DNA of 62,454 nucleotides, the filler included, from Streblomastix strix (taxonomy: Eukaryota): the NCBI GenBank assembly GCA_008636045.1. It is 3 parts of 3 records of this genome, joined end to end, with 100 filler letters (N's around TTAATTAATTAA, not from the genome) between each part and the next. Parts side by side here need not be neighbours in the genome. Positions count along the whole stretch, not along the records: positions 41,732 to 62,454 come from SNRW01000417.1; 2 more parts are not named here. One strand, given 5' to 3'. Positions 5,801 to 62,253 of the stretch are shown one piece after another. Position numbers and translations under genes: made by a program. The notes under the pieces were generated by a model. It was given only the letters and a program-made list of their open reading frames with translations. It was not told where the DNA came from and ran no database searches. Numbering within the stretch: the stretch's first letter is position 1; each line of letters opens with the position of its first letter.

Positions 5801-6457
5801 AAAAGCATTGAAACAGATAGAAAATGAAAGAGATGGAAAATTAAATATTATAAATGATATAATCCTTTTGCTAATTAATGATAACGAAGAAATAAAAAAT
5901 TTAATGGCTCTGAATGCCATATTCATCGAAAATTAGCTCAACATTATTAATTCAATTCAATTAAATTAAATTAGATAATTTCACCTTGATCCACTTGATT
6001 AACTTTCAAATTATCTTCCAATTGAATTAATAAATTAATCATTTTCAAAAGGAATTATTCAAACGATGATATAATTAATCAATTCAGAATATAAATAAGT
6101 CCGACATAATGCAATTAGAATAATAAATACAATTATTAGATCATAAATTTTTGTAATAAGAGAAGGGTAATAGCATCCATATTTCCATTAATTATCAGAA
6201 GATGGAACTATTAATAGTCTAATCTAATTATTCAAGACTAAAAGTGATTGGCTTATTTAATCAATTATTGCACAAATCTTCGCATATCTCTTCAAAAGTT
6301 AATCTCTTCCAGCTGAAATTAAAAATGAAGTTATTATTTAATTGAATAAGAATAATTAATTCCATTAGCTTACTCTTCTTGCTGAATGTAAAGGTTTATT
6401 ATTGTATTAATTAATTATTTTTTGTAATTACTATATTTTATTGTTCTTTTTTAATTA

Positions 6458-6549
<92 letters not shown>

Positions 6550-8009: not shown

Positions 8010-8101
<92 letters not shown>

Positions 8102-9654: not shown

Positions 9655-9929
9655 TATTAATGTTTAAAGCAATTATTATTCATAATATTCTGTTTATCAT
9701 ATTCACGATAGATTTTCTATTTCAACCTTAAATTTATCTAATAAAACCAAAAATATTAATTATTTATCATTTTTATTATTATTCTGATAAATTATAGTGA
9801 GGATAGTTATGAATAACTGTAAAATTAATTTAACAATAGATTAAAATTTAAGATTTGAATAAAGAAAGTAAATAGATTCTCTTTTAGAAAAATTAAAGAA
9901 ATGAAATTTGTTTTGTTTGTTTCTTTTTA

Positions 9930-29800: not shown

Positions 29801-32800
29801 TTATATTGAATTTACTTCTTTACTTTCTAGAAATGTCATTGATAATAATAGTTAATAGCAAAAATAAGACTATAAATAAATAAAACCATTAATAAATTAA
29901 AACTCAGTTTCAAATGTAATTAAGATAGAATAACAATAAAATAAATAACAATTAATATAGTAGGAAAAAATAAACTAAGATTCAAAATTATAACCGGTTT
30001 CAACTCTTCATACAATATCAATTTTGTCTTCTTAATATCCATTATAAAATATTTTATCAATTTTTGAAAGATTTGACAAAGAATTTTTTGGAGACAATTA
30101 AAAACTACCAACATTAATCAAAAACAATCTTTTCCCTTAAAAATAATATTTAATTATTGACAGAGAATAAATTAATGAGTAAAATGCTTAATAATAAATA
30201 TAGCAGCGAAGTTTTAATGGTTTATTTATTAATAATTTATAAGTTTGGCTCAAATGGGTTTAATAATCCAATTAATAAATCCCAGATTAATTATAATAAT
30301 TACTTTCTCCATATGAGTAAATGATTGTAATAAGACAAATATTTCCCTTCAAATTAAATGATGGGATAAATTAATTCATCAGAAATACACTAAAATCTGT
30401 ATTTCCATCTTTTTAAACATAAGAATAATAACTAAAAGATGCAATTTCATTATCATCGAATAATTCTCCAATTTTATTATTTTCTCCATATCACTAATCT
30501 AATCATAAATATTATATTAAATAATTAATTAATTACAATTCAAATGTAAGAGAAGAAGATGTTTTAAATATTCCTTAAATAACTTCTCCATTTATTGAAT
30601 CTAAATTTCAATTTAATTTAAGACTTCCTGATAATTTATTCTTTCAATTGCCAATTACCAACTCAAATATTTAATAACATTAATTAACAAATTAACTAAT
30701 GTAAAATATTCATATTAATTATTTAAATACAATTTATGGTGATTTATTATCATCTGATTCTTATCTGCATTCTATTCTTATTCTTTCTCAAAAACTGTAG
30801 AAAGAAATACAGTAAATTATGTAAGATAAAAAAGAATAATAAAAATAAAAATAATTGAATTCATCATAAATTATATATAAATAATAAAATGAATATTAAA
30901 AGATATAAAGAAATGAAATTAATATTCTTAACAATATTGGATTAAAACATAAAATTGTTTAAAGAAGTGATGAACAACCTAAATTAGAAGATTAAAATAT
31001 TTAGAATAATGAAAATAAAGAATTAAATTGCAATTTAAAATAATAAAGGTTCCTTCCTTAGATTGGATTCAATTAATATTAATATCTATTCTATAACAAT
31101 TTTCTTCCTAAGAAGTATAAAAATATAAACACAAAATTTAATTAATAATCAAACTGTTAAAAATTAATTAATTTTATTAATTTTATTTTTAATTCAAAAA
31201 TTTATAAAATAATGAATTCCTTCTCAATTTAATAATTTCATATCTCTCCAAATTCATTCTGTATGAGTTAAGTTGGAAATATAATTGATAATATTATTAT
31301 TGAATAAGAAGAAATAATGAGTGAAAAAATTAATAGGATTAATAATAAGATATTAAATATGAAATTATAAAATGGATAATAAATTTATTTATAGGAAAAT
31401 TAAGAATTAATAATATAATAAAATTTATCTAATGTAATAAACTGTCAGATTAAAAATACAAATATTATAAAATAAATTAACATAAATAATTCTCAACTAA
31501 CATAATATTAAGATATTGAATAATCAAAATCACACAAATATAAAAACATTGGATTAAAATGCTAAATGGATTCTGATTTACTATAACGATGGAAAATATT
31601 CATTTATTAAAAATAAATTCTTGGATAAAAGAGAAAATGGAATTTGAATGGAAAGAATATGGATAATAAGAAGGAATATAATAATGAACTAAATGATAAA
31701 TGTGATTAAGATGAAGAAGAAATAAATGATTTTGATGAAAATTAAAATTTTGGGGCTGAGGATTAACTCAGATAAGAATTAATCATTAATAATAAAAATT
31801 ATAGCAAATTCAAATTACTTTATAATTTGAAAATTGATTAAGATATAAGTTAAAGTGAATAAAACTAAAGTTTAGAATTAAATTAATTATTTTTAGAAAA
31901 TAGCAAAATAAGTAAAGAAATTCTTTAATCTGATCGAATATATCCAATTTATCCAACGCAGAATTTTCCATCTTCTCACTTCATTCTTTCTGCTCCAACT
32001 ACACAAACATTATTTTAGTCTTTTTCATAACAAACAACACAAATAATTAACACTTAGGACGAGGAAATGAATTTGAATATTAAAAACTAATTAATCAGAA
32101 TAATATGTCAAGTCCCAGAACAAATGGAAGATATTGAATAATTAATAAATATTAACAAATTCAAATGTAAATATTGGGGATCGATTCTATTTTCATTATC
32201 CTATATATTTACAATATTGAAATTGAGATAATAAATTCTACTATTGTTTGATACAGCATTATCTGGACCTGGAGAAAGAGTCTCTAATTTCCAATACAAC
32301 CATTTAAGCCAAACTATTCCTTCTAATATTTATTGTTAAAGAACTTTCATTGAACTTATAAATATTATTAAGGACACTATTATTAAATATTTTGATAGAA
32401 AATAATATTACAATTAAACTATTTATAAGGAAAATATTCAAATTGTTGGGATAAATTATGCAAATATATAATAATATCAAGAAAGATCTGAATATATAAA
32501 TCCATTTTGGCTTTAAGAAGCAAGATCTTTATTGATTAGACATCTTTCGCGTGTTGTTTAATTTAATCAAAGAGAAGTGGCATTTATTATATAAATGTTT
32601 AGTACATATTTCATTCCTTAAGCATTTAAAAGTGGATTTAATTTCTTATTTTCATTATCATCAAATGGATTTTAGAATTTAATCAATATGAATTAAAATA
32701 AAACAATTGAAAACGATAATGAAATGAATAATGATATTAGAAATTTAAAGGATCAAATCTTCGTTTTGCCTGATTATTTAAGGAGTTAGAAATTCAATCG

Positions 32801-34841
32801 GATAGAACTTATTAAATATATTTAATCTAGTTTTCCTGAAAATATAAAATCAAATAATATTGGTTTATTAGATACAATCGTAATGATTGGCGAACTTGAA
32901 TAGTCTTCTCGATTAATTGATTAAATAAGTATTACTGTTCGTCCAGCTTTTAAATAATTACAATCCGGTTTATGGGTTAATTCAAACTAAGGATAAGGAT
33001 TAGAAAGATTTATATTCAAGTAAGAATAAGTTTAATACCTCTAATAGTGTCTTGAATAAAGAAGAAATGAAATAAGCTAAATAAATCAGTAAGAAACAAA
33101 TATAATAAATAATGAATAGCATCAAAGAATTGAAAGTTTTAAATAGGAACTTGTTAAAGGCCATTTATTAAGATTGTCTAAATAAATGAAATAAGAGTAG
33201 GAAGCTTTGAATTCTAAATTAGTTAATAGACTCGAAGAAAAATTCTTAAATAAAGCTTTTCTATTAATGTCTGAAATACCCAATTAAATTCCAGAGAAAT
33301 ATTTTGTTAAGATTAAAAATCTATTCAATTAATCTGTTTCATAATAACTAGTAAATTAGTATATACTAGAATAAATGGAATATCAAAACGCTATGTTGAC
33401 TTCAATCAGGATGAGAATAAATACCATAACTCAATGTTTATTTCCAGTTAATAATTCAATTCACTTAACACATATTCCTTATCCATCACCATTTATTGGA
33501 GATAAAAGATTATCTCTTGAATCATAAATTATTAAATTATTTCCCTTTCCTTAATACATTGGATCAAATGAAAATGATATTTCTATTTGGCTTCAAATGA
33601 GAAATTTATACTTTATTCAGATATCAGAATAATTAAACATATTCAATTATGTTATTCCACTATCATTATTTGTCGCTCCAGTTGGAATAGTGAATATATT
33701 TTAAATGATTGCATATTAGAGACATTTGAAAATCTAAGAAAGATAACGAACAATTTAATAACAGAGAAGAAGATCTCAAATTCGAGGAGAATTCAATCAA
33801 ATTAGTATATATTCTTAATCTTAAAATTTAGCTGATTAGAAAATTAATAACAAAATATTGAGCAATAATGAAATTTTAAGAAATACATAATCTTTTTAAT
33901 CATTAAACTAAAATCCACGATCGGATAATAAATAATAGAAAGATAATATCAGTATTCACACTACTTCACCATTCAACTCTCCAGAACCAATTTACACTCC
34001 AATAGAAGTAATTCAGAAAAAGAAATATTCTGAAGCTGAAGAAGAAGACAAGGTTAATCAAACTTAATTGGATCTCAAATTGAAAAATAGTGCATTTCAT
34101 TCACAAACAAATATTGAGGATGTTTTGATTGGAATATAATTCGTTGGAGTTGATCCCTCAAAAGATATTCCAGAGAATGAATTTACTCAGAGTGATATGT
34201 CTGGTGATACAATTCTTGTTTCTGGAATTTCAATGCATGGATTTGCTTGGAATTTTGTAGAACAAAAGTTTATTAATGCATCTCCTGTTGGGTTCTTACA
34301 GAAAGAAGCATCTTAATTCCCAATTTTGCGAATTTCTTTATTATTTTAAGAAAATGTTAGAAATATCAGCAATTAAAGAATAATTGATGCATCTGATTCT
34401 GTACCACTTTCTCCTTATTATCCCCCATATGACATCATTCATTCCCAAATATACTGGAAATATCTGGAGGAAATGAACAAATAAGATTAGTTATAAACAT
34501 TTTCTAAAGAAAAAATTATACTTCCATCATAAACATAATATTCAACTGTAGAATTCAATGAAAAAAATATATAAAATCTTTCAGAGGACCAAACAAATAT
34601 TCCAATGTAAAATATTAATCATGAAACAGATAAAGATATCAATTAAAAAAGAATTAGAAGGCGAACTCACATATATTCATCTTCAACCAAAGATGATTCA
34701 GATTTGGCTGTAATAGTACTTCATGATGATTTTTATGAATATGAGAAAAGTGGATGTTTCTTATTCTTTGATTTTGATGTGAATTCAATGCTAGCACGTT
34801 ATGGAAAAAGCTTTGAGAAAATTAGAATAAGTAACAGCTGA
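20881..34841 (+). CDS. Highly divergent dynein heavy chain-like protein, 5'-truncated (AAA3 lid to C-terminus), with long Q/N-rich insertions
   Basis: SPRIIRHF (~21790), LWIKTCRNVFADRL (~22290; cf. LWxHExxRVFxDRL), stalk/MTBD-like DLYFIRMFTNPHNLVKRMCDIILILL (~26625), RGDSVLTSAFLNFNGF (~27480; cf. GDxLLxxAFxxYxGPF), IIIDPVGTAEQWI (~28015), GYPLLIE, GISMHGFAWN (~34225). One intron near 23159-23242. TGA at 34839-34841. Confidence 0.8.
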
Positions 34842-41731: not shown

Positions 41732-41922
41732 TAAGCGATAATGAAAAATATATGAATAAACTATACAATGATAATAACCATGAGTACGAAAGAATCTATA
41801 ATTAAAGAAAAGAAGAATTAAATAATGTAAATACAAAAATAACAAAAATAAAATAGTTCCTACTAATTGAAGCAACAGACGAAGATAAACAAATATATAA
41901 TTAGTTTGTATAAGAAGCATGA
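41732..41922 (+). CDS. Element hypothetical protein, 3' end (coiled-coil-like)
   Basis: ...YERIYNQRKEELNNVNTKITKIKQFLLIEATDEDKQIYNQFVQEA-TGA. Confidence 0.5.
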
Positions 41923-41956
41923 TACAAGTTGTTTTGAGAATATTACTAATTGTAAA

Positions 41957-42211
41957 TCATAACGCCGAAAGAATCGACAGATAATTAATGTAGTTGATTA
42001 TTTCATTACATTTATCTGAATGTATTAGTTCTGTATTATCATTATATTTATTTTTAATATCTTAAATCATTTGTTCATCAACGTCATTAATTGGCTTGGT
42101 TAATGCTTCAAAGATATGGTAAATTTCATTATCCGATGCGTTAATCTTTTTTCCTATTTACTGAGCAACTGTTAGTAATTAATCCAATTCATTAGGATTT
42201 GACGTAATCAT
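41957..42211 (-). CDS. Element hypothetical protein (84 aa)
   Basis: TAAAATG start; MITSNPNELDQLLTVAQQIGKKINASDNEIYHIFEAL...YLSILSAL-TGA. Confidence 0.6.
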
Positions 42212-42260
42212 TTTAAATAAACATAATAATAATATTATTTTTTTTTAATATAGTTTAAAA

Positions 42261-42700
42261 ATGGATTCTTTAAAATGTATAGATAAACAAATATTTGATA
42301 ATTAACAATACAAATAAGGCATAATAAATTGTAATAAAAAAAAGATATAGATGGATATTTGAGAAAATAATTTAGATTCTCAGTATATTTAGACAAATTT
42401 GCATCAATATTAAGGTAGTAAATAGAACCAATAGAAGAAAATATATATTATCTTAAAGGACTTATTAAGTCTGTTAAGATGCCTAAATTAATGTTTCCAG
42501 AAGGATAATTATCAATTGAAGATGATAAAAATAAACGAGAAGAATTACTTATACTATATAACTAATAATTATAATAAGCTACATAATAATTATATGGCTT
42601 ATAATCAGATTTTAGAATAATAGAGTAATATGAATAACAGAATGTATGTAATAACCTTAGTGGAAAAACTAATCCATTTACTATTTTGGATTATTAATGA
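42261..42700 (+). pseudogene. Element hypothetical protein with a frameshift in an A8 run
   Basis: MDSLKCIDKQIF... hits TGA at 42360, but the -1 frame from 42344 continues DIDGYLRKQFRFSVYLDKF...NPFTILDYQ-TGA (42698-42700). Confidence 0.55.
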
Positions 42701-42710
42701 GATTATTTTT

Positions 42711-44721
42711 TCAAATTACACGACCATTAAAAGTTAATGTGTTTCAATCTGCTGATATTTATAAGCCTCTATTATTATCGCCTGCTTAAGATGATACAAC
42801 TATTACAAAACTTTGAGGATTATTTGTTGAACTACTTGGTGATGTAAAAATAGACCATTAGCCATCAATAGCTCCAACGGTTGATGTTCTACTACATCCT
42901 AACTAAATTGAAGAATTACCTGTACTTGTTGGATCAGCTCTTGATATTCTCAATCCATCATCATATCCAACAGCTTTGAGGTTAATTTATATATTACCTA
43001 AATTCACTTTACCATAGAAATTTAATACATTACCATATTAATTTATTTGTAATCCACTACTCGATCCCTCTTATCCTGCTTTAACGATAGTAAATCCAAG
43101 AGGATTAACTGTGTTATTACCTGTTGAACCAATTAACCATTAATTATCAATATATCCATCAATAGAATAAGGATCAGCTCCAAATTATATATTACTCCAT
43201 GAATTTGTTGGGTTTCTACTTATTCTAATACCTTCATTAAATGTACCATTAATTATAGGATAAATTTACATAATTGTAATAAATGAATTAGGAAATAATT
43301 ATTAAATAACACTATAATCCTCAGGTAATGCCTCCTATCCATCTGTCGTTAATATATCAGTAATATTACCCTAAAAAGCACTTACGCTTGATTCGAATAT
43401 ATATGAATTGTAAGTATATTCATCAATTTTACACCATAATTCACCATATCTATCAACTCCATCATTAAAGTATAAAATCCATGCGCTATTAATACCTGTG
43501 GCTAATGTTGGAATAAATAAATACTAATACCTACTAATACCTTAATCATTAGTCCTATGTTAATTAAACTATATTTATCCAAATCCTATCCTAGTACTTA
43601 CTTCAAATTTAATAGAATTATCGGTATTGGAATTTACAGCTAAAATCGTACATAATTTAACATATTATCCTGGGTCAATTTCTGTAAATGATCTGCCTGC
43701 TATAGATGATTATTTAGTTGATCCATCAGCTAGTAATATGTCATTTGATGTGCCCCCAGTCTTAATAAATTTAGTAGCTGTAATATTCTCAATCATAATT
43801 TAATTACTATGGATGTACATGGTCATTTCTATAATATTAATCACTCGTACTATTAACCGCAACAGTAGCATTTACTAACGGAACATTCACACTACTTGGA
43901 TCAACATTTAATGGATGTTAATGTTTTGTACTAGCATATACACTTGACGTACCAGCAGTTCCAGTTCCTGTATCTTTAAGTGGTATATCACTACTTAGAT
44001 TTACATGATGAGTATGATCGGATCTAGCAAAAGTATTTGCAACACCATCTTCACCATTTATTGTATCTTTAGATGGAAAGACAGAAGAAACTTATAAAGA
44101 AAGTTAATGGTCTCCTCTAGCATAATCGGTTTATATTCCTGCTACACCTGCTCCACTATCAACTGATGGGGTGTTATCACTTGCTGGTGTTACTTAATCT
44201 GGTACTATCTAATCTGTTTCAATCCAACTTACTTAATATATCCATACTAGTAAATCCTATGCACTATAAGCGTAATCACCCATAGCACTAGATTGTAAAG
44301 CTAGTATCTCATCATTCGTTGCTAAATATCCTCTGAAATATGTCTATCTCGATAACTCTTAATTTATTACTTGTACAGCTGCTTATAACTAACAAATATC
44401 TTAAATACTTGTATTTATCTATTATTATATCTGATATACTTGTTATTCTAACTAAGTTATTTTTTAAAGAAAGTCGTTGTTCAATAGTTATAGATTATTT
44501 ACTATTAACAAACCTTGTGGAGTTAGTTTCACTGCTTAGTCTGAGGGATTATTTTTTTAACAATATATCAAGTTATTTTAATCGTATATAATCAAATTAT
44601 ATTCATTGCTTTGTGTAATGCTACTAGATATATTTTTCTTTGAATATTACATGTTATAACTTATATCAGAATGTATAAGTCGTTTTATTACTGAAAGTTG
44701 TTACTGGGTTAATGATTACAT
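42711..44721 (-). pseudogene. Tail-fibre-like protein gene (~670 codons), disrupted
   Basis: N-terminal coiled coil; repeats YARGDHQ, FARSDHTH, YASTKHQHP, YRNDHVHP; then ATKFIKTGGTSNDILLADGSTK; two EGIRISR/DGLRISR...QW..G beta repeats; ends RGLQISAD*NTLTFNGRVI. Frame break at ~43791 and internal TGA at 42744-42746. Confidence 0.7.
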
Positions 44722-44736
44722 TTTAAATAAAAATAA

Positions 44737-45135
44737 ATGAACGTTATATCGTTAATTATAACAATTATCAATTACATTTTTTATGGTGCAAACTTCTTGT
44801 TATCAGTAATCAGCCTATCCATTCCTTCTGAAGCATTGAACTTGATTAATATATTTAAAAAATTATGGAGTTATATTGATGTTATAGTTATACCTATAAG
44901 TATTGTATTGTATATTGTAAAATTCTTTTATCATAGAAAAATGGAACATTAGCTTGGAACCAAGGACGGAGATAGTGGAAATGATGTTGTTAAAAATTAA
45001 TGGAATCAGCTTACAATTGACGAGTTGTATTAGTTAGTACAGATAACAATGGATGAAAAAGATTTAAAGTTAGCAAAACATTATCGTTACCTAATTACTT
45101 TGAAACTAATAAATAAATAACAAATAGTTCCTTGA
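44737..45135 (+). CDS. Element membrane protein (132 aa, two hydrophobic N-terminal segments)
   Basis: Track ORF 44737-44952 extends through TAG to TGA 45133-45135; segments VISLIITIINYIFYGANFLLSVISLSI and YIDVIVIPISIVLYIV. Confidence 0.65.
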
Positions 45136-45177
45136 ACATTTTTTTTCAAAAAAGTTTGATTTTATTTTTATGATTAA

Positions 45178-46239
45178 ATGAGTTCCTAAGAAATTAATCA
45201 TATACAGTTCGATGATTATAGCATGTTAGAAGAATACAAAACAAAACCACTGACTTCAAAATCAATCTTTGTTATTAATGGAAACCACTATATAGTTGGA
45301 GCTGTTGGAAGTGGCAAAACAACTTTATTATCTAAACTAATAATATTATACAAACATATTATTAATCCTTACATGTTATACTTCTCTAATCTAGGACCAG
45401 ACGAAACCATGGCAATTAATATGAATGATAAAGGAGTTCAACTAACAAATATGACATACAATGAAGCTATGATTTTCTTACCTTAATATGGTGAATTGAA
45501 ATATAAAGTTAAAGAGATATACACGTACAATAAGTTAAAGTAAATGAATATACGTTATAACAGTGATTTCATAAAAAGACTCAAAAAAGAAATGTATGAT
45601 TTTAATGAGTTAAAAAAAGATGAGTTCTATTAATAGTTTACAAATAGAATGAAAGAAGTGTTCAAAGTTAATTGTATTGAAACTATTAACACATACAGCT
45701 AACCAACCAAAATATCACGTTTTTCTATTCCTCCGCTTATATAACACGTTGCATATGATAAGAGACTAAAAATAGTTGATACTCCAGTTAGTCGTAAGCC
45801 TACGGCTACTCATGAGATATATGAAGATGGTGTTGAGATAATCAAGACACTAAAACTACCTGTACAATCGAATGCTAAATTGTTATCTACACTAATGATA
45901 TTTGACGATATTGGTTCTAATACAGATATTCAACGATATACCTCTGAGTTATCACGTACAATAACTCACTTAGTCAGCGATAGTAGACACGCCAAAAACA
46001 CATTATTCTTAGTAGCATAAAGACCTAGTTATCTTTTTAAAACTGCTAGAATATTATGCCATGTAATAGTCATAGGGTCTGGGACATCAGACATTGATTT
46101 AAAACAAGTATATGAAGAAAACCACATCAACACATTGACGGAGTAAGAACTAATGATAATATACAACACATTAAATAAGTATGAGTTTATTATCATTAAT
46201 AAGTATTAAAATAGATTTGAAATTATTCGTTAGCTGTGA
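45178..46239 (+). CDS. A32-like (FtsK/HerA superfamily) genome-packaging ATPase, 353 aa, intact
   Basis: Walker A HYIVGAVGSGKTT, Walker B LMIFDDIG, then SDSRHAKNTLFLVAQRPSYLFKTAR (RH...hhhhxQ...R pattern of A32/Polinton/virophage ATPases). Intronless; ATG 45178, TGA 46237-46239. Confidence 0.85.
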
Positions 46240-46260
46240 TATATTTTTATTTTTAAATAA

Positions 46261-46401
46261 ATGATTTGGGAGATATTAAGTTGTATTTCATTAATGGTTA
46301 TAGCTCTTAACAATCTACTATGTTGTATATTAACGATATAATAAATAAAAATAGATAATGAAGAGATTAGTGATGAAGTAATAAATTCACTTTACTCTTG
46401 A
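46261..46401 (+). CDS. Small single-TM protein (46 aa)
   Basis: TAAATG start; MIWEILSCISLMVIALNNLLCCILTIQQIKIDNEEISDEVINSLYS-TGA. Confidence 0.45.
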
Positions 46402-46442
46402 GATTATCATCTCTGATGTTAAGAATCTTCGATTGTTATTTT

Positions 46443-47361
46443 TCAAACAGTCTAATTATAAAGAGCATATGAATCACATACTTATACAAAAAAATCATTC
46501 GGTAAACTAAACTAACATTATGTATTTATTTTAATGTCCATCCAGATCAATGAAGCAATCTATTGGAATTGGATTTAGCCATACAACAAGTGTAGTAGAT
46601 TATTTAGTAATATAAATAACGGCGTTAAGAGGTATTTTATGAGATGAACCACTGAATTTTGGTTTTGCGGAATCATACATAACAGAAAATAGAGTGTATC
46701 CAGTATTCCAATTAGTGTTAGGATTAGAATGTGTTATACCTATTGAAATATATACACGATTATTTAATAATGTTGCTTATCCCCATGTAAAGAAATCAAA
46801 TGCACCAATACCTAGTGTTTATTATGTTGCATATTCAATTGGTAATGGAGATACGATTTAATTATTGAACTTAAGTGATATACAATCGAAATCGATAATT
46901 AATCCCTTATAATCATATGCTTCATCTTCTTATTTTTATATTCTAAATTATGATGAAGTTGATCCAACTTTCCATATACCATCTCTATCTGTGGGGTCAG
47001 CATTACAACCAGTGAGAACAAAGCTATCCCAATTCGTTTTATTTTTCATTATCCTAATACCTTAATTACGTATGTTACCATTCGGTTCAATAATCATTTA
47101 ACCCATTGCATGAGGATAGTATTTAGGCAAAAAATCTCCTTCATCAGTTATATCTCCATTAGTCAATAATAATTAGTTTGAAGTTCCTCCTGTGTTAATA
47201 ATCTTATTTACTACTATAGGTTATGTAAAATTTTTATCTCCAATAATGATCTAAGAAGTATTTAACGTTACCAAATGTGATATATCAAAATCTTTATTTT
47301 TAATATATTAACTAAAGTAAATAAGTAGTTTTTCAATCTCTGCATCAATGAATGAAGTCAT
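46443..47361 (-). CDS. Second tail-fibre-like protein (~300 aa), probable frameshift near the 3' end
   Basis: LVTLNTSQIIIGDKNF, IINTGGTSNQLLLTNG, NQGIRIMKNKTNWDS...DGIWKVG, beta-rich C-terminal head-like domain. Frame stops at 46495, but an alternative frame from ~46533 continues KINTQCQFSLPNDFFVQVCDSYAL to TGA 46443. Confidence 0.65.
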
Positions 47362-48176
47362 TTATTTTTACAATTTCTCTAACTACTTTACTTCCTCTTA
47401 TTTTTGCTGTAATTCTTAAAGTTGTATTTGTATATTAACTAGTTCCTCATCAGTTGGTTTGATTAATGTTTCTATTTACTTAAAAATAAATTGATTGTAA
47501 TAGCATGAAATGAAATGATTCAAAACTCGTTTGGATCCACTTCTGACTATGGTTTATCACTCAATCTAACAAAGTCCTTGTTTATTCGATATAGTTTTTC
47601 AACAGAGTTAAACAACACATTATCCAATACACTAATGCTTACATTTTTTATTAGTACATCCATTACTCTTACTAAGTCTATTTTCCTATATTTCTTTGCC
47701 ATACATGAATGAGATTACATTAGTGGTTCCTCTAATACAATCTCTATATCATCTTCGTTTTCTTATGTGATTAGTGCCCAAAATTTAATGAAGTTATCAC
47801 TGTTCAATATGAAGTCATCACCACGCTTTCTAGATGTTGTTACTCTCCAGATACAATCAATTACAAACTTAAGAACTTCAAGATTTGGATGTGCTAAGAA
47901 AGTATTTTTAAATACATCCTCAGGTTCTACTTATGCAGTCTCTCGTTCAACATCTCGATACTTATTTTTATCGTAAAACCTTTTAGTCTTAACTTCATGC
48001 TCATTAATCATATCAAATTATTTAGTTTCTTATTATGGTGTTGATAAGTTTCTAAGTGCTTAATCAATTGATTATAACCTTATTCTATCCTCTTCTGTCA
48101 ACTCTTTTTTCATATCTTATATCTGTTTCTTTGATTTACTCATACGGAGTTGATTCCTCTCGATACTTATAATCAT
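47362..48176 (-). pseudogene. Element hypothetical protein with probable 1-nt deletion at ~47522
   Basis: MIISIERNQLRMSKSKKQ...FLAHPNLEVLKFVIDCIWRV...VDPNEF-TGA (47520); the neighbouring frame continues LNHFISCYYNQFIFKQIETLIKPTDEELV... up to the next ATG. Confidence 0.55.
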
Positions 48177-48208
48177 TTTTATTGATTAAAAAATTTATTT
48201 ATTGATAA

Positions 48209-48844
48209 ATGGACAAATCACAAGCACTAAGAAAATTAAAAGAAAACGGCAATTCATTCGAGAGCTTCAACAATGGTTATATCATGTAAGTAGGTAAATA
48301 AATTAAGGTATATGAAGATGGTTATAAAGGTCCCAAAGTGATGACTTAAACATAATAGAATAAGTTATTAGCTATACGTCCAGCACCTAAGCCTGTTGAT
48401 AACAGGCTAATGTATATGGATGATGAAGACAACACAGATGAATAAGATGATGATGCAGATGATGAAGAAGAAACTATTCCGGAAGTAAAGCCTAAAGTAA
48501 TGAACAAAAACGTAAAGTAAAAACATTAATAAAAAGCACCAAATATTAACTACACTAATCCTTAGTTAGATTTTGAAGAACTAATATAATTAAGAACGGA
48601 AAACAAATTTATAAAAGAATAACACATACAATCATAGAAACAAATATAAAAATATAAAAATAAACTTATGTAATTAAAGTAGAAGGAAGTTTAACCAATC
48701 GAACATAAGCCTGAAGCAATGAGGACTGAAGTATTGAAAACCGAAGGGTTGATGAAACCGAGAGAAAACAATTCCCCTTAAATTATTGAAGAATAACCAA
48801 TATAATATTAGAAGGTTATACATGAGTATGAACTCTTCCAATGA
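48209..48844 (+). CDS. Element hypothetical protein (211 aa) with acidic tract and coiled coil
   Basis: TAAATG start; MDKSQALRKLKENGNSFESFNNGY...DDEDNTDEQDDDADDEEE...HEYELFQ-TGA. Confidence 0.65.
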
Positions 48845-48867
48845 GCTATAACATTTATTTTTCTCAT

Positions 48868-48992
48868 CAATCATAAGCATTAGCACGAAGTTCATCAATG
48901 TATTCCATCGCTTTTATTAACACACGTGTTGCTTTGTAGCACTTTTTCTGAATCGACATCGCTTAGTCTTTTCGTGATGAAAAACATTACAT
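48868..48992 (-). CDS. Small element ORF (~41 aa)
   Basis: TAAAATG start; ...MSIQKKCYKATRVLIKAMEYIDELRANAYD-TGA TGA. Confidence 0.3.
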
Positions 48993-49700
48993 TTTACGAG
49001 AGTCTGTGATGCTCTGTAGCACTAAGAAATGATAATTCAGAATTTGCATACGCGTTTTCGTTATGAAAAACACTGCGTAAAAGATTATTTTTATGGAAAA
49101 TTAAGAAGCAAGTTAGTACAAAGAATCATGTTAGAGAAAATAACAAAGCACAGTAATATATATAGAAGATATTAGTAGAAACTTGTGATGGTTTTGAATA
49201 TCAAATTGGTTTTAACGTTTTTTGATATAGACTTTAGACATTGTTTTTGAACGAAAGGCGTTAGCCTGAAGATAGGAAACAATAAATAAAAAATAAATCA
49301 AAAAAAGATAAAAATAAATTGTTTTTATATCCATGTCCAAGTTAGTACAAAGATCTTCTATATATACTATTCATACTAGGCCGTAGGGACTGGATGCTCC
49401 CACGAGCTGTCCACCCCTATGGGTCGGCCATTATTTAAAATTTAAAGAAAGCTTGAAATGTTAATATACGATGAATCTGAAAATCCCTTTTACGGGAAGA
49501 ACAGCGAAGAGGTTTAAACAATTAAACAAAAAGGAATTGATATATGAGGAAAACATTAAAACAAAAACTCACTCACCAGAGTATTCTCGTTGTTGCAAGA
49601 GTGAGAAAAGAATATTAAATTCGTACATAAAACCTCACAAAATACATCACGTAGTAAAAAAAAATTCCAGTGTTGCTATTGATTGTTGTTTGTTTTCTTA

Positions 49701-51050
49701 TCATTGTTGTTATAAATCTTTATCAAAACTTCTTCGATGTTCGAATTCGTTAGCATTCCAACTGCTCCAATAGTCTTATTGTCTAGACATATCATCACTG
49801 TTATGTTGATCAAGGTATATTATATCGTTTAGTGCTCCTTTGTTGTCGGTTGGTTCAATTCCTCGACCGACGGGTAGGGTCTCATAGAATGGGAGGGCAA
49901 GAGGTTGAGCAATTGAACTCCGTGATAACTTACTATTATCAGAGTGTTATAAAAAATACTCTGGCAATGTACTTATATCACTTCGTTCAATTGCTCCACC
50001 TCTTTATTACGAGATAGTTTAAGTAGCGTAGCTTTGGCCGTGACTTCCCACGAGCTAAGACGCGATATCATAAATTCCTGCATTTGCAGCGTATATGTAG
50101 TAGTTGCTTGCAGCCCTCGAAAATACGCTGTGGTGTGTAAAAATGTTCAACTTCGTTGTATCAAGCCCCTGTCTTGCTAGTTCTGTTGATGCTGCATGTT
50201 TAAAAGAGTATGCAGTTGCCCCACGGATACCGATTTCGCGTAAAAGGGAGTTCAACCAAAGACTGATTCGTCGTTTATCTGCTGGTTATCCATCAGGTTA
50301 CCAAAAAAAGTTCGCAAAGTGTTCAGCATCCATCCCAAAATGCCAATATAAACGATTAAGCCAAGTGAACAATGTTGAATTAAGACTGACCTTTGGATCT
50401 CCTGTTCTTCTTATCTCATATTGTTCAATCGAATTGTTCGCTTTCGGAACTAAGCATAAAATTGCTGTTTAGTTTCTATAATCTATGTTCGAAATGGCTA
50501 AGTTTATTTCGGTTACCTCGTTTATTATGATGAAACATATGGAGAGTAATAACAATGCAAGTTTCGTTTGAATCTCTGTATTTGATAAATCTTTATCATC
50601 AGGTCGCGAGCGCCAGTAATCAAATAGTTATCTTATGTCCCACATATTAGAATATCTTCTGTTTATGATCTTATAATTTAAAACTGCTCTATACGGCAGT
50701 TTTGATGGTGTCTATGTAATTTGTGGTATATCAAAAATGAAAGAGAGCATTGTATTTAGGCATTACTGGAGGGTGTATGCTGAAGAAGCGCTTGGATTCC
50801 ACCTTGTGAACCAGTTTATCACTTCAAAAAGTAAAAATCCAGGGCTTATGGAGAGTAGTTAGTCAATACTGAGACCATGTTCGTAAGAGAATTCTGCCAA
50901 TGTTCTCATTGCATAAAGGTAGTGTCTCTAAGTCTCGAATCTCCATACATTGATGAGTAATTGCTAAGCTCCTCTAGAAAATCATATCCTGTCTAAAATC
51001 TAGGTTAAAAACATTCTTCCCTTCTCAACTTCTGGTCCATGAAGAATGCT
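49701..51050 (-). pseudogene. DIRS tyrosine recombinase (disrupted)
   Basis: WDIRQLFDYW, QTKLALLLLSICFIIINE (Arg expected at FIxIxE is Ile), AYSFKHAASTELA, FTHHS...NYYI; in-frame TGA at 50982-50984. Confidence 0.85.
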
Positions 51051-52940
51051 GCTATCTTTCCAGGTGGTAGAAAGCTTTTTGGGTTTTCCATGCTTAATCC
51101 CTTGATTAGGCATTAACTTGACTGTACAAAAATAAGATACTTGCTTGACTGATTCATTAAGCTTGTAAACCATGGCTTGCCTGGCCACAATGGTGCTATT
51201 ATCATTGCTAACGTTGCTTCGTTGTTAAGGTATGAGATCACTTTTGAAAAGATTGGAATTGGAGTGTGTACTAATAGTATTTTGTTAGTCCATGTGTTAG
51301 AGAATGCGTCAATCCATTGGGCATTTTAATCCCCTATGTTAGCTGTTACATAATGCTGTAGTAGTTTCGTTGTCGATGATGCAAATAGATCTAGAGTTGG
51401 TAGGATGTTCAATATCATTATTATTTGATCTAAATACAGAGGGCGAAAGTGATAGTCTCCTAATCTATACAATCTGCTAAGAGCATCTGCTATTATGTTT
51501 TTCTTCCCTGAAACGTGTTATGATATTATTTTCATGTTCAAATGTTGGCAAGTGAAGTAAATATCCTTCACTGCTGGTGTTAACGTGTCTGTTGCCCTCA
51601 GTCTTCTTAAATCGAATACTGCTGTAGAGTTATCTGATCTAATTAGGAGATTAATTATCTGTAGCTCTTTGCAAATTCTTGCGAAAGCTATTATTTCTAA
51701 GTGAATGGCCTGAAGTTCTTTATTATTACTTGTCCAATGTATTTGGTAGCTTAGCCATGCTCCATGAGCTACTAGAACCTCTCCAGAATTTAGTTCCAAT
51801 GTTGCTCCCCACCCTTGGGGTGAGGCATCTGTTACTGCTGTAGCTTGTGGAATTGGGGGTTATATGTATATTTTCTTATTCTCTGTTATTTTCTTAATCC
51901 ACCAGTAGAGTTCCTTCAGGGCTTCTAGCGGTGAGACCATCATTCCAGTCCAGCCTTGTGTTTTGACTGCTCTAGTTTTAGCTGAGTCTATTTACATTAG
52001 ATAGAGTGAAGCTTCTCCGAATTGAGTTCTCAAGAAATTCAGTCTTCCTATTAGAGCTGCTGTTTCTTTAATCTTGATTATTTTATGTCTTTGTGCGTTC
52101 TTAACAAACTGTTTGATTTATTCTAATAATTGATGTCTTCTATCTTTAGTCATGAAAATATTCATTTCTGTCATATTCCATGTCCATCCGAGGAAGTCTA
52201 TCTCTTATATCGGAATTAATTGCCACTTATTCAGAGCTATTGTCCAACCAAAATGCTCCAGAGTGTTGATTATATGTGGTGTTTGGTAGAAAAGCCAATT
52301 TTTATCTTGATGGAGGAGAAGAAGATCGTCGGAGTAGTTAATTATTCTGATGTCTGTTCTCTTACGAATCTCTGTTAAAAGAAGGGTGAGTGCCTAAGTA
52401 AAGAAAATTGGGGAATGTTTAAATCCAAATGGCATTGCCCAATATTGGTAGTGGTGATTATCGACTTCGAAAACCAGGTATTCTCTATGTGGAGGGTATA
52501 CTATCAAGTGATGAGAGGCCGATTTGAGATCGAGTTTTACTGCCCAATCGTTAGGAATGAGAAGGCATCGAATTTGTTCGACTCCATTCTTTTAAAAATG
52601 TAATGGTTGTATTTCTTCGTTCAGAAGACTTGCATCTAGTATCTTTCTCCATTCTCCCGAAGGTCTAGGTACCAGAAAAGTTAGGATCCACCATTTAACT
52701 TTTTCTTTCGGAATCTCATCTATTATTCTTTCCTATAGTTCCTCTTCTAACATCGCTTTGTATGCTTGCATTTCTGTTTAATTTTTTTGGAAGGGACATT
52801 GTGCGATTATTTGTTAAAGTCTCTCTTGACTGTTATTATCTTTAAATATTAAGTAAAATCTTTTCAGTATGAAATCTTTACAATTAATTGTTTCCCAAGC
52901 TTTTATATATTTCATGATTTCTCCACCCAGATGTTGTTGT
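50906..52940 (-). CDS. DIRS pol: reverse transcriptase + RNase H + adenine-methyltransferase-like domain (start approximate)
   Basis: WRKILDAS, LDLKSA, AMPFGFKHSP, NYSDDLLL (52326-52337), FLGW; RNase H TDASPQGWGA, KELQAI, SDNSTAV, NIIADALSR; MT-like LDLFAS...DAFSNTW...APLWPGKPWF. Confidence 0.92.
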
Positions 52941-53048
52941 TATACTGGGATTTAGCTTCTCTAAGGAGGAGTCTTTGATAGTTGCTCCTCCTGTTAATGC
53001 ATCCAGATCAACATCAGCATATGCCATCCAAAGGCAAAGTTGGCGCTG

Positions 53049-54480
53049 TCAGCGGCCCTTCTTCTTCTTACGGGAAGATTTAGAGCGCGATTTTGTGCTG
53101 CTTTTATTCGCTTCGCTCCTTCTGGTTTCTTATGATAGCCCCGGTGGGCCTTCATATCCAGGATTATCTCGAAGATTGTTTAAGTCTTGTTGACCCTGGT
53201 CTTGTTCAAGTCTATCTTCAGTTTGTTCTTACTCCTGACCAATAGGAGGTTGGAATCCAAGGCAATCTGCGCCTTATGCTGCAAGATGACCTTGTTGAGG
53301 TATATTCATCTCATTTCCATCATACAAATGCTAAATGTTTGCGCGTTAAGCTGCAAAAACATTCGCAGTTTCCCCCTCAGCATGCCATGATGCTGTCGCT
53401 AATTAAGGTGGGGCTTTTGATACAATAGGGCCATCATTGGATGTATGTTCAGTTTGAATAAGATGCCTATTCCATCATCTGTTCCATATCTATGTCCAGA
53501 TCTGATCCAAAATTAAAGTCACTCCCACCAGCGATCTGTTTTATACGAGAAGATTAGGCGCTGGGATTATAGTCCCATTGGCTGCTCCAGTCTTCCCGCG
53601 CCTCTGTCCAGAGACTTTTAATTTAGACTTCGTACTTCCCTAAATAGGTTGATGATTAGATAAAAGGGGTTGTGCTTGAGATTATGCTTTGCCTCTACCT
53701 CTATTCTTCTTTCCTCTTCATCTACGACCTCTAACTTGTAATTCAATTAGATCTGCATCTCCAAATACATCATCATTACTATCGTGATCATCATCTCTTT
53801 GCATTTGATATTAATCAAAATCATTAGAATATTCTTACTAATCTTAAGAAGGAATCTAGCAGAGGTTATCTATATATTGATTTGGATTGAAGTTAGGTTT
53901 GAAATTTCCAAAGAGATGGTAGGAGGGAATATCAAAGCCTTTGCTCCTAGCCATCAAATTCGTCAGCATTCCATCCATTAAGTATTTTTGCGTTTTATTC
54001 TGTGCTCTCTGTTGCATATGGATTCGATATTCATTCCTAGCCCTATTTTCTTGAAGTATCCTCTCATTATGAAGTCTCTGGGCTCCTTATTCTGCTCTAA
54101 AATCCAAGCTCGTTGGTGACATATTAATACTTGCACAAGAGTTAGGAAGATCCGGAAGTCTGTATGGTTAGTTAGTGTTCTGTTAACTCTACAGATTGAA
54201 CAGCTATTATTGTTAGCATACCAATTGCTATTGATTTTATGCCTGTTATTGAGATACCAACATATTGTTTACTGGTTGGGTTGTAGTATTAGGTTGTATG
54301 TCGACTATTGGAGGTAATTCAATATTAGAAGGATTAATTGGAGGAGGAGAAACGGCTATAGGAGGATGAAGAAGGTGAACTTATTCTTATTGTACTTATT
54401 GCAAACTTGGAGTGACAATATGAATTATATTGGAACTTGTAGTTTCAGAAGATTATAAAGTTGATATAGAGGGCTAGGTA
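53049..54480 (-). pseudogene. DIRS gag-like ORF1 (disrupted)
   Basis: P/Q-rich, then RGR*RGKKNRGRG with in-frame TGA at 53718-53720 and a later frame change; ends ...KSRSKSSRKKKGR-TGA at 53049, just upstream of pol. Confidence 0.55.
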
Positions 54481-56799: not shown

Positions 56800-59700
56800 A
56801 TGTTCTTCAGATACAAGTAATGTTCAATACGTGGCATGTAAAATCGGGTTTAAAATTTTTCATTTTTCATTCATGCAACCAAGTTTACTGGGAGTATTTT
56901 CTGGTTAGCATTTGGATTAAAAATAAAACAATAATTTTGATTAATTAAAATATTTATAAATTATAGACTTGATTGTAAACCAGCTAATAAAAAAAAGCGA
57001 AGAAGCAAAGAAGACCATGTAACAACCATAATCATTAACGGAAAAGGGTATTTATGAGCTTTGAGTTTAAAACATCTAAATTTTATTTCATACATACTGC
57101 AGAATAGAATGCGAAGAAGGAAAGCTTGAATAGTCGCCAGGTCCTTGTTTATGGGTATTCACTATTAGTTATGTTATATTTTCTTAATTTTTTTAAAGTG
57201 AAAAAACTTAGAAACTCATTTCAGAATCAAGCTGCCTTATCAGTGGACTAGATGGGGTGGGAGTCGAGATAGGTATTCATTATTTTTAATCCATTATTTT
57301 CTCGTTTATTCACAATTTTTTCATTGTTTTTCATAGCAAAAAATGTGATATTGAGTGGACTTGGGATCGTTACAATTCATGATACTGCCCTTACAGTCAT
57401 CGCTGATTTGACAACTCAGTTTTACCTCACAGAATCAGACATTGGAAAGAATCGCGCTGAATCCTGTGTGACCAAGCTCGCAGAACTGAATTAATATGTT
57501 CATGTTGAAGCTATCACAGGAATCCTAACTGATGATGTTATCAAGAATTACAAAGTTGTAGTCCTTGTGAATGCAAATGGATAAGAAATCGAACGTATTT
57601 CTAAATCTTGCAGAGCGAATGGAATCAAATTCATTATTTGTGACACAGCCGGTTTATTTTCACGAATATTTGTAGATGTTGGTGAATCACATCTTGTGTA
57701 AGATCTTGATGGAGAAAGATTGAAGATGGCAGTTATATAACTGATTACAAATGATAAATAAGCAATTGTTCACTCACTATTAGAAGAACCTCATGGATTC
57801 ACAAATGGTGATTATGTAACATTCTCAAAAGTAGAAGGAATGACATAGATCAATGATTTGTAGCCAGCTAAGGTTACATACATAAGCTAAGATTCATTCA
57901 AAGTTGATATTGATTCATCTAAGTTCGATCATTATACAATGAATGGATATGCTAATCAAGTGAAATTCCCATAAATAATTTCACATAAACCTTATTCAGA
58001 ATAATTAGAAAATGATCCATAATTTGCAACTATTGTTGATTTGGTTCATTTCGAGCGTCCAAATATTCTTCATGCTGCTTTCATAGCTCTTAAATAATAC
58101 GAGTTAATCCATAATGGAGAATTACCTCATCCATACAACAATAAAGATGCTGAAGAATTTGTCAATATAACATAATAGATCTACAATAAGATATTTGGTT
58201 CAGATGGATTTGATTCATAATTTGTGAAGTAATTCAGTTATGTTAGTTCTGGTGCATGTTCACCTGTTGCTTCTTCAGTAGGTGGAATTATTGGATAAGA
58301 AGTTGTGAAAGCAGCAACATTAAAATTCACTCCACTAAGTTAATGGTTGTATCTTGATCATAGCGAAGTATTACCGATTCCATTACCAAATGAAGAAGAT
58401 TGTAAACCTCTTAATTGTAGATATGATGCACAGATTGCAATATTTGGACGACAATTCTAAGAAAGACTTGGAACTTTGAATTATTTCTTAGTTGGTGCAG
58501 GAGCATTAGGATGTGAAGCTATCAAGAATTATGCATTGATGGGAGTTGCATGTGGTACTAATGGATTGATAACAGTAACTGATATGGACAACATTGAACT
58601 ATCAAATCTAAGCAGATAATTCTTATTCAGACCTTGGGATATTCAGAAACATAAATCAAATGTTGCTGTTTCAGCTGCATAAAAGATTAATCCATAATTG
58701 AAGGCATTTCCAATGACAAGCAGAGTTGGTGTTGAAACAGAAGATATATTCAATGATGAATTCTGGAATAAACTCGATGGAGTGCATAATGCTTTGGATA
58801 ATGTGCAATCAAGACTATATGTGGATAGTAAGTATGCTTATAAATTATATAAAGAATAATATTTTATAACATTTATTTATTTATACTTATTCATATTATT
58901 ATTTATACTTATACTTATTCTTATACTTGTACTCATACTTATACTCAAAAAGAATAATCTAATACCACAAAACACTTCTTGAAGGTGGGACACTTGGAGC
59001 AAAAGGCAATGTTCAGGTTGTAATTCCTCAAATAACAGCCAATTATGGAGCTTATAAGGACATTTAAGACAAAAGTATACCACTTTGTACAGTTAGAAAC
59101 CTTCCTTATATTATTGAGCACACAATTGAATACACTCGAGGTCTCTTTGTAGATATATTCAGTGAATAACCTTCAGATGCTGCATCATATATACTCAATC
59201 CAAAGAAATACATTGAGCGCATTTAATCTACTCAATAAAACAGGCTCATATCAGTTCAGAACTTGAAGAAGAATTTAGTTACTGAGATTCCGCGCACATT
59301 CAAAGATTGCATTGAATGGTCAAGAAGATTATTTGAGTAATGTTTTGTGAATCAGATTAAACAACTTCTTTATAGTTTTCCTCCAGATGCATTGACAACG
59401 AGTAATACTCCATTTTGGGGTGGAAGAAATAAGATGCCAAAAGTAACACCATTTAATCCAAGAGATTATAGACATCTTGATTTTATTGGACATGCAGCAT
59501 CTATTAGAGCGAAGAATTATTGTATTGATATTCCAGATGAAATGAATTGGAAGGAAATTGCAGATGTTGGATCATAAACACCGATTGATACTTTTATACC
59601 TCTGTCACATATGAAGATTGATGTTGATCCTAATTCTGATAAAAGTGAATCAAATAAAGATGAAATGAATGCAGAAGAAGAAGAGAAATATTTCTAAGAT

Positions 59701-60411
59701 GAAATATCAAAACTTCCATCATCTGAAGATCTGATTAAATAAGGAATCAAAGTTGAAGGAGAAGAATTTGAAAAGGATGATGATGCAAACCATCACATTG
59801 ACTTCATAACTGCTGGTTCCAATCTACGTGCAATTAACTATGGTATTCCACCAGCTGACAGGAATAGAATCAAATAAATAAGTGGTAAGATAATACCTGC
59901 AATTGCTACAACGACAGGATTAATAGCTGGATTATAATGCATGGAACTGTACAAACTTGTATCGCCTTGTGATATATTCAGAAAAGCTGATCATTACAGG
60001 AATTGGTTCATAAATATAGCAGCCAATATATTCACATATTCACAACCCATCCAACCAAAGCCAATCTAATAAGGATCTCCATATACAATCTGGGATAGAG
60101 AAGATGTAATATTCAAATAAATACCAACACTTGGATAAGTAATTGATAGATTAAATGATTAGAAGAAATGGATCATATCTAAAGTATCATATGGGCCAGG
60201 ATTGATGTGTGCTACTTTCTTAGAAGATGAAAGAAATGATTAGAGGAAGAAATAACTTATTACTGACATTGCTGAAGAAATTGATGAAAAGAAACTTGCA
60301 AAAGGAACTAATATTCTTTGTCTTGATACGTCATTTGTTGTTGAAGGTGCTAATCCTGATGATGAAGAATCATTCCTTCCTGTTTATGTCAAGTTTCCTC
60401 CACTCGAATGA
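56800..60411 (+). CDS. UBA1: Ubiquitin-activating enzyme E1
   Basis: [87 protein letters not shown], catalytic [33 protein letters not shown] 60409-60411. Confidence 0.97.
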
Positions 60412-60560: not shown

Positions 60561-61912
60561 TCATTAAACAAGTAAAAACATTCTTAAAATAACAAATGCT
60601 GCCAATCCTACACCAAATGATATCCAACAACAATTCAATTTCTTCTTTTTGCTCTTCTTTTCAACAAAGATCGATTTTTTCAGCAAATCAGAATCAAGAA
60701 GCTCTTCAGCAGATGGTCTTCTCGTAGGGTCCTGATAAATATTAACATAAACCAATAAATATTAATAGAAATAATAATATTATTATATTACAATCAAACT
60801 GTATTCAGCATTGCTTCAATCATTTCCCTGACCTCTCCTTATATTTCAGATGGTAATTATGCCATCCTTCCATTCCTTATGTTCATAATGGTCTCTTCTG
60901 GACTCTGCCCTTCATATGGATGCTTCCCTGTAAGAAGCTCTACAAGTATAACACCCAAAGACCAGATATCTGATTGGAAGGTCATTCTATATTAGATAAT
61001 GGATTGTTAATAATAAATGTTTATAGTTGTTATATCGAATTTTATTATCTTTTATAATTATTAATAATTCTGATTGTATACTTATTTTGTCTAAGTGATT
61101 CGGGAGGACTATAATCTCTATAATGATTAAAATTAAAGTTTAAATAAGTAAATATTATTAATTAATCAGAAATATTTATATACTTTGTTCCTGCTGCTTT
61201 GATGTATGATTTACTAAAAACCTTCATGGATAATCCAAAGTCACCTATTTTCATTAAAATAATAAATTAAATAAATATTATTTATATCTAAATATCTAAT
61301 TAAAATCGAAAATCTATACCCAACTTTGAATTCCCATCTTTATCAAAGAAAATATTCTCCGGTTTCAAGTCACGGTGCACAATACCAAGTGAATGGAGGC
61401 TCTGAAGACCAGAAAGTACATCAAACAGTATCTTAAAACTTTGCTGGATATATAAATTAGGAAATAAATTTATAAAATATCAATAATAAGAATAAATTAA
61501 TGAATGATAATTACCTTTTATATTTTTTCAAAATTCGATCTTTCCATTCTCTCAAGAAGTTCTCGCAAATTCCCTCCTTCACAATATTCCATTATGATGC
61601 AAATATCGTCATCATATATAAATGAACTATAGAACTACACAGTGTATTTTGTCAATAATTTCTTAAGCATAGCAATTTCTTCATCAGCAGCTCGTTTGTC
61701 TTTTTAATCAAGGTATGGCAATCGCTTCATTATGAGTTCTACTTTTGGATTCTTCTTCAGCTTAACAAGTAAAACTCTGCCAAATGAACCTCGTGATAAT
61801 TCTCTTATTCGTTGGTCTGCAGCATTAATAGTTAGAAATGGATAAATCTAAAAAATGGCAAACAATCCTAATATTTGTGCTTTTTAACAGTCCTTGATTG
61901 ATTATTACCCAT
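60561..61912 (-). CDS. Multi-exon NEK-like Ser/Thr kinase with N-terminal MGxxxS and C-terminal hydrophobic tail
   Basis: MGNNQSR; LSRGSFGRVLLV; IMKR; ADEEI; MEYCEGGNL; HRDLKPENIF; G|DFGLS; YSPPE; SDIWSLG; DPTRRPSAEELL; KKSKKKKLNCCWISFGVGLAAFVILRMFLLVQ-TGA. Confidence 0.92.
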
Positions 61913-62253
61913 TTTTTATACAAGAAAACTACAATCTTTGGAAATAAAAACAATAATACGTAAAAAATATTAAACAAGACAAGTAGTAGGGAAATTATTA
62001 TTAAAATTTGTTATATAGTAAGTTAAAATAAAATTTAAATTCATTTAATTTATAAATAGCACCTATTTGCTGGCTAGGTAATAAGTTTTTTTGCAGGTTG
62101 GCGGTTTATTCATAATAGTGAATAATATAATTATCCTTGTTATAAAAGTGTTATTTGTTGGGGATTAATGAGAGTCCGGGACGTCCGGAAATTTACTGAA
62201 ACGATTTAGAATTGAATTATTTATTTTTGACCTGTATAAACAAACTCAACTGA

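Follow-up and report, generated by a model that had tools for sequence, protein, structure and literature searches.

A probable degraded fragment of a Polinton-like virus in the recoded genome of Streblomastix strix, linked through its sister copies to a predicted double jelly-roll capsid

The window considered here, the whole stretch of 62,454 nucleotides that was analysed, comes from assembly GCA_008636045.1 of the termite-gut oxymonad Streblomastix strix and consists of three joined pieces, the third of which (41732-62454, contig SNRW01000417.1) holds at its start a cluster of compact genes around an A32-like packaging ATPase. This cluster is very probably a degraded fragment of a Polinton-like DNA virus that is present in many integrated copies in the oxymonad genome, and it covers part of the module predicted to build the virion. 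The virus is likely of a second family in S. strix, apart from the one already published.

The genes are readable in the code of the host, in which TAA and TAG (together TAR) stand for Gln. The contig begins at 41732, directly after the spacer and inside the element, as an earlier note made from the sequence had stated. From there, translation with table 6 gives ten intronless gene units between 41734 and 48844, placed on both strands in divergent and convergent pairs. The earlier note had described about 11 packed, intronless open reading frames (ORFs) separated by 10-50 nt: the lack of introns and the paired layout hold, while the units number ten and the gaps measure 15-53 nt in seven of nine cases, with the remaining two at 93 and 158 nt. 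Its claim that TAA and TAG encode Gln throughout is well supported, since these two codons make up 133 of the 161 Gln codons in the ten correctly framed ORFs (two misframed ones being set aside), every one of which terminates at TGA. The cluster is also invisible under the standard code, as had been said: table 11 cuts the ATPase into pieces of at most 98 aa, and even the Gln within its AQR motif is encoded by TAA/TAG. Table 6 makes long ORFs easily, so the case for the cluster rests on homology. Among 100 shuffles, 15 yield an ORF of at least 353 aa, which speaks against ORF length alone as evidence, and just one yields four ORFs of at least 288 aa. The start codons of most viral genes (41957-48844) lie in TAAATG or AAAATG, which may reflect an AT-rich start context only.

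The ATPase carries much of that homology. The intact P-loop protein of the earlier note is there with all of its motif set: Walker A at residue 41, Walker B at residue 240, SRH at 269 and AQR at 280. The spacer of ∼195 aa between Walker A and Walker B, whose helical part alone is confident in the structure model, is one that we take to be much longer than in typical A32 proteins. From 1913 candidates, a homology search retained 37 ATPase matches, the protein of the window included; the other 36 are homologue clusters that all bear the name Streblomastix strix, at 37-89% identity. Pox_A32 is the best Pfam family of these paralogues. It is matched by five of 19 aligned members. Along the half of the protein from Walker B to the arginine finger, these five reach 23.3-26.3 bits, where the cut-off is 22.8, in a test of seven proteins of which five were chosen as known matches. 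The window ATPase is 52-59% identical to the five paralogues that pass the cut-off, with all four motifs kept. Near-full-length ATPases account for 25 of 94 records, and 18 of these 25 keep all four motifs. A tree of the 25 records and the window protein has three clades, of 7, 9 and 10 rows, with 100/100 support; it was built without an outgroup, so it does not place the family among viruses. Several near-identical full-length ATPases lie on different contigs, which suggests recent spread. That all three well-separated clades are written in the host code suggests that the family has long been resident, since the code changed or from before that change.

It is very improbable indeed that the ATPase is a cellular P-loop NTPase in a cluster of ordinary host genes or of contaminating bacterial DNA. 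Such an origin would fit the weak Pfam matches of the ATPase to NACHT, AAA and cobW, which cover the P-loop only, and one weak PHROG terminase match (E 5e-4). The best Pfam family of the paralogues is nevertheless Pox_A32, and the genes are intronless, tightly packed, multi-copy, written in the host code, placed on a host contig and linked to a capsid fold. Searches of phage and viral contig collections found no relative. Scans for related loci in viral contigs, metagenome contigs and prokaryote genomes found none, save two viral loci that match in the P-loop only, and PHROGs, NCBIfam and phage tblastn returned no meaningful match. The blank results of the scans that start from protein are weak, as these scans use the standard code for back-translation.

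Sister copies of the cluster are abundant, and they show which genes belong together. Automatic gene models often splice neighbouring genes, so fusions between them reveal gene order. In 23 of 93 ATPase records the ATPase is fused to a second window gene, either a fibre-like gene or ORF10, and by such fused models the ATPase, both fibre-like genes and ORF10 travel as one module. The genes lie on the same strand in 17 of the 23 linked records, whereas six have the window-type order, with the ATPase facing fibre B. In the window itself, the ATPase and the two small membrane genes (44737-46401) are inverted relative to the fibre genes. The neighbour genes are multi-copy, not single-copy genes of the host. 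Three termite-gut runs contain 4176, 826 and 219 contigs, respectively, that match the stretch 41740-50400 at ≥85%, most of them <95% alike; this stretch includes 1 kb of a retrotransposon. The three runs represent two studies, and one is perhaps the source of the window.

A further gene of the family was recognised from the ATPase model P0024, which starts with 40 residues foreign to the window. A search with these residues gave 28 matches among 50 candidates, and they belong to a Gly/Ala-rich protein of ∼65 aa (P0050 residues 1-64 and 27 similar sequences). Its start is strongly amphipathic: in five sequence segments tested, ≤0.3% of shuffles reach as high a value. Of the 28 models of the small Gly-rich protein, 27 fuse it to fibre A, and P0067 joins it to a sequence of ∼540 aa; its model P0050 and the ATPase P0014 have adjacent locus tags, on contigs that are equally long. 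It is possibly a membrane-entry protein, which we would liken, as an assumption, to adenovirus protein VI; a literature search brought up no paper on a protein VI-like gene in Polintons. The 40-residue peptide of P0024 was also considered as the end of a capsid, a candidate rejected on its identity with the small Gly-rich protein.

The same kind of fusion leads to a capsid. A gene of ∼600 aa is fused to the module in four models: to fibre B in P0139 and P0246, to fibre A in P0187 and to the small protein in P0067. The chain also runs through the small Gly-rich protein, which is joined to the ATPase (P0024), to fibre A and to ORF2. A phmmer search with P0067 gave 235 matches; 128 of the best 150 listed cover the capsid part. 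Twenty of the matches were looked up: 12 are named S. strix, and the eight distant ones are metagenomic. These distant homologues, at 24-29% identity, come from Logan, ENA, JGI and NCBI proteins, and some of their clusters sit on contigs of 20.0-20.7 kb, which may be whole genomes. The cleanest of them, P0173 (29%, E 7.9e-51 to P0067), was folded with 58 sequences and gave a model with a predicted local distance difference test score (pLDDT) of 63.5 and a predicted template modelling score of 0.68. The top PDB matches listed by Foldseek for P0173 are all double jelly-roll capsids, with EhV-201 at E 4.5e-10 and Sputnik at 4.0e-9; the viral library adds the Sissi virophage at 1.3e-10, and comparison with the PBCV-1 capsid gives Z 13.6 and a root-mean-square deviation of 3.6 over 320 residues. 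The capsid gene beside the sister copies is predicted from this model to encode a double jelly-roll capsid. The capsid alignment matches no capsid family in Pfam, and PDB sequence searches with the ATPase, fibre and capsid proteins turned up no useful match. The eight metagenomic homologues (P0173, P0206, P0218, P0228, P0229, P0236, P0266 and P0268) are themselves capsid homologues that lack a Pfam capsid match.

Four fusions are few, and they invite another explanation, in which the module is a capsid-less repeat, non-autonomous or domesticated by the host, and capsid genes became fused to it in the models because abundant repeats happen to lie side by side. The window does lack a capsid, both of its fibre-like genes are broken, and gene order varies between subfamilies in the proportion of 17 to six given above. 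This explanation is nonetheless improbable: the four fusions involve one capsid family and three different module genes, that family is itself multi-copy by the listed matches, and the near-identical full-length ATPases on different contigs suggest that the module has spread recently.

How far the virus is new is a separate matter. The passages and tables of Bellas et al. 2023 (PMC10120064) already report table-6 viral elements of S. strix, in the MMN (Metamonada) group, so the earlier note overstated the novelty of the cluster. In that source 820 capsid matches are counted in S. strix, all in one cluster, the published capsid (KAA6394011 type) matches Trichomonas vaginalis at about 32%, and viral sequence makes up about 11% of the S. 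strix genome (Table S4). It is therefore conceivable, though rather unlikely, that the cluster is an endogenous virus of this already counted family, the linked capsid being either divergent or a second capsid of the same elements. This alternative departs from the favoured explanation on separateness alone. Host and code are the same in print, the 820 matches are many, the strand pattern of the linked capsid resembles, by eye, that of the MMN capsids of Table S3, and 85 of the 235 phmmer matches lie outside the best 150 listed. On the other side, all 820 published matches fall in one cluster. Four motifs of 8 residues taken from the published capsid were sought at ≤2 substitutions in 284 collected proteins and found in 0 of them, although the published family occupies hundreds of loci in S. 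strix; two control motifs from the linked family were found in 35 and 25. The published motifs are likewise absent among the best 150 of the 235 P0067 matches. The eight distant near-full-length matches are metagenomic and not from Trichomonas, which the published capsid does match. Six linked-capsid accessions are absent from the covered parts of the supplement, which do not include the S. strix rows of Table S5. Since the 85 weaker matches lie outside the listing, and the two capsids are set apart by motifs rather than by alignment, it is moderately probable that the linked capsid is separate from the published one.

The fuller proposal, with a chance somewhat better than even, is that the integrating DNA viruses of S. 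strix include a second family that has so far gone uncounted, with a distinct capsid type, a long helical insert in the ATPase, two variable fibres and a short amphipathic entry protein. This family would be the recoded, host-anchored member of a lineage not yet described, to which the unannotated genomes of ∼20 kb in public metagenomes would also belong, and S. strix would supply its first known host group. The suggestion of the earlier note that the lineage is possibly undescribed has gained support here, as the linked capsid looks unlike the published one. A search of the open literature on Streblomastix, oxymonad Mavericks and the MMN group, with most subscription papers outside it, found no description of the module. 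The passages of a Yaravirus preprint name Streblomastix only for a primase-polymerase tree, and those of three other preprints leave S. strix unmentioned. The kind of system and its association with this host are known, and the specific family is probably undescribed.

Both fibre-like genes announced by the earlier note are present, but neither is intact, and the fibre role is a reading that draws on no database match. The sisters of gene A, of ∼660 aa, have a coiled coil, three HxH repeats and beta-rich modules; the modules are common to genes A and B, and a UniRef name stands on three of 28 models. From these features the two genes are labelled as putative fibres. Neither gave a PHROG, phage or PDB match at a useful E-value, and none of the 28 fibre-type models has a Pfam match. 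A coiled-coil open stretch (47362-47508) lies directly upstream of gene B. Paralogues of gene A (P0046-P0073, compared with 42711-44721) have similar front halves and widely differing back halves, as if modules had been swapped, a variation that is perhaps partly an artefact of the gene models.

The damage to these genes had gone unnoticed in the earlier note. Gene A has a frameshift near 43788, where sister proteins read through and where public contigs from all three termite-gut runs have one base fewer, and a premature stop at 42744, 11 codons ahead of the gene end. Gene B changes frame near 46534, and ORF3 has a probable frameshift near 42335, a site across which one contig of run X1 is identical. 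With both fibre-like genes lost, the window copy is likely a decaying insertion. The passages of Bellas et al. 2023 (PMC10120064) warn that apparent lesions of this sort can arise in assembly when an element has many copies, so decay is likely rather than proven.

Host DNA follows the viral genes on the same contig. ORF11 is followed on its right by a short ORF of 31 codons, a hairpin, a DIRS-type retrotransposon and the host gene for ubiquitin-activating enzyme E1 (Table 1), and the intron-bearing E1 gene supports integration in host DNA. The hairpin is possibly the end of the element or a small transposon; the search for terminal inverted repeats found no partner end for it on a contig that begins inside the element. 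It sits exactly where the viral genes give way to the retrotransposon, and a direct repeat of 16 nt (49109 and 49338) accompanies it. The DIRS element matches RVT_1 (E 2e-16) and a recombinase family (E 2.5e-6) in Pfam. Its tyrosine recombinase was considered as the integrase of the virus and rejected, because it overlaps the reverse transcriptase (RT) frame and the retrotransposon has a higher GC content, 37% against 27%. The gag-like part carries in-frame stops, and the terminal structure of the retrotransposon is marked by junctions that public contigs show at 49372 and 50014. Elsewhere in the window, the first contig has a tandem duplication of ∼1.55 kb (6386-9787), with ORF starts repeated at 6700 and 8252 and a minus-strand poly-Gln stretch, and the second has a very AT-rich open frame of 3489 codons under table 6 (24372-34841).

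Table 1. Features of the third piece of the window, with positions counted along the whole stretch.
Feature	Position	Strand	Remarks
ORF1, 3' end only	41734..41922	+	contig starts inside gene; coiled-coil-like
ORF2, 84 aa	41957..42211	-	joined to small Gly-rich protein in sister models P0273 and P0277
ORF3, probably one gene broken by frameshift	42261..42700	+	A-run near 42335
Long fibre-like gene A, broken	42711..44721	-	sisters ∼660 aa; putative fibre
ORF6, 132 aa	44737..45135	+	two predicted membrane helices
A32-like packaging ATPase, intact, 353 aa	45178..46239	+	four motifs
ORF8, 46 aa, possibly truncated	46261..46401	+	one predicted membrane helix
Short fibre-like gene B, frameshifted	46443..47361	-	motifs in common with gene A
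ORF10, ∼218 aa	47520..48176	-	kept in sister copies, 54% to P0044
ORF11, 211 aa	48209..48844	+	acidic, low-complexity
Imperfect hairpin, 212 nt	49157..49368	.	z -5.3, 0/200 shuffles as stable
DIRS-type retrotransposon	49372..54450	-	gag-like part, RT 50906-53155, tyrosine recombinase 49701-50909
Host ubiquitin-activating enzyme E1 gene	57054-60411		GT-AG introns
Protein kinase gene, intron-containing	60794-62113	-	

Several results weigh against the reading of the cluster as a piece of such a virus. The window ATPase and two members of its sister clade do not match Pox_A32, and the structure model of the window ATPase is unusable (pLDDT 39). The capsid gene is absent from the window, and ATPase and capsid occur together in none of the fetched records, so the capsid link is a chain through neighbours in four automatic gene models. 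The capsid fold is that of a metagenomic homologue, modelled at a mean pLDDT of 63.5. The window covers part of the element, and no polymerase, integrase, protease, penton or pair of terminal repeats was identified in it. With so many copies in the family, some of the lesions may have arisen in assembly, and separateness from the published family is judged by indirect tests. Set against these are the many copies, the capsid-linked sisters and the host flank, all of which favour the proposal of the earlier note that this is a piece of an integrated dsDNA virus in a TAR=Gln metamonad. The two small membrane proteins of the earlier note do have hydrophobic helices, and the search of sister copies for jelly-roll capsids that the note had suggested led, via fused models, to a predicted double jelly-roll capsid gene.

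An intact element would have several tasks to share among its proteins, and the functions, the formation of a particle and any current activity are put forward here from analysis. The ATPase would pump DNA, driven by ATP, into an icosahedral capsid of double jelly-roll proteins; attachment to host cells would fall to the two fibre-like proteins, set on the vertices of the particle; and membrane or entry steps may be the task of the small membrane proteins, along with the short amphipathic protein of the sister copies. As the genes are readable only under the TAR=Gln code of the host, the virus would depend on host translation, and the code would confine it to hosts that use the same one. The system is not new as a kind. 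If a second family is real, the published viral share of the S. strix genome is an underestimate. In the passages of a preprint on Polinton-like viruses (bioRxiv 10.64898/2026.06.19.733378), Metamonada elements are left ungrouped, unplaced for want of relatives, and a second type of capsid and ATPase with a known host and metagenomic relatives would offer seeds for placing them.

Each of the known systems shares part of this picture. The EMALEs of Cafeteria burkhardae that carry Ngaro (Hackl 2021, PMC8547959) likewise pair a tyrosine-recombinase retrotransposon with an integrated small DNA virus; S. strix offers a single case, into or beside the virus, without a protease or a sequence match at the level of virophages. 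The Mavericks/Polintons of T. vaginalis are alike in their metamonad host, very high copy number and divergent capsid, but named Trichomonas proteins account for 0 of 36 ATPase matches and none of the 20 capsid matches looked up, and the protein-primed polymerase, rve integrase and KilA of those elements were not seen in the S. strix window. The MMN viruses of S. strix and parabasalids, as covered in PMC10120064, are alike in host, TAR=Gln code and copy number, and have, like the linked family, a double jelly-roll capsid recognisable only by structure; the linked capsid is without their capsid motifs and has its closest outside relatives in metagenomes. The passages and tables of that source hold no description of the gene content of the S. 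strix elements. From Polinton-like viruses the S. strix family differs by the long helical insert of its ATPase, and penton, polymerase and integrase were not identified in the window. With those viruses, as described in the passages of the preprint (bioRxiv 10.64898/2026.06.19.733378), it shares a module of capsid and A32-like ATPase, compact intronless genes and integration in a protist, and it has relatives on contigs of ∼20 kb.

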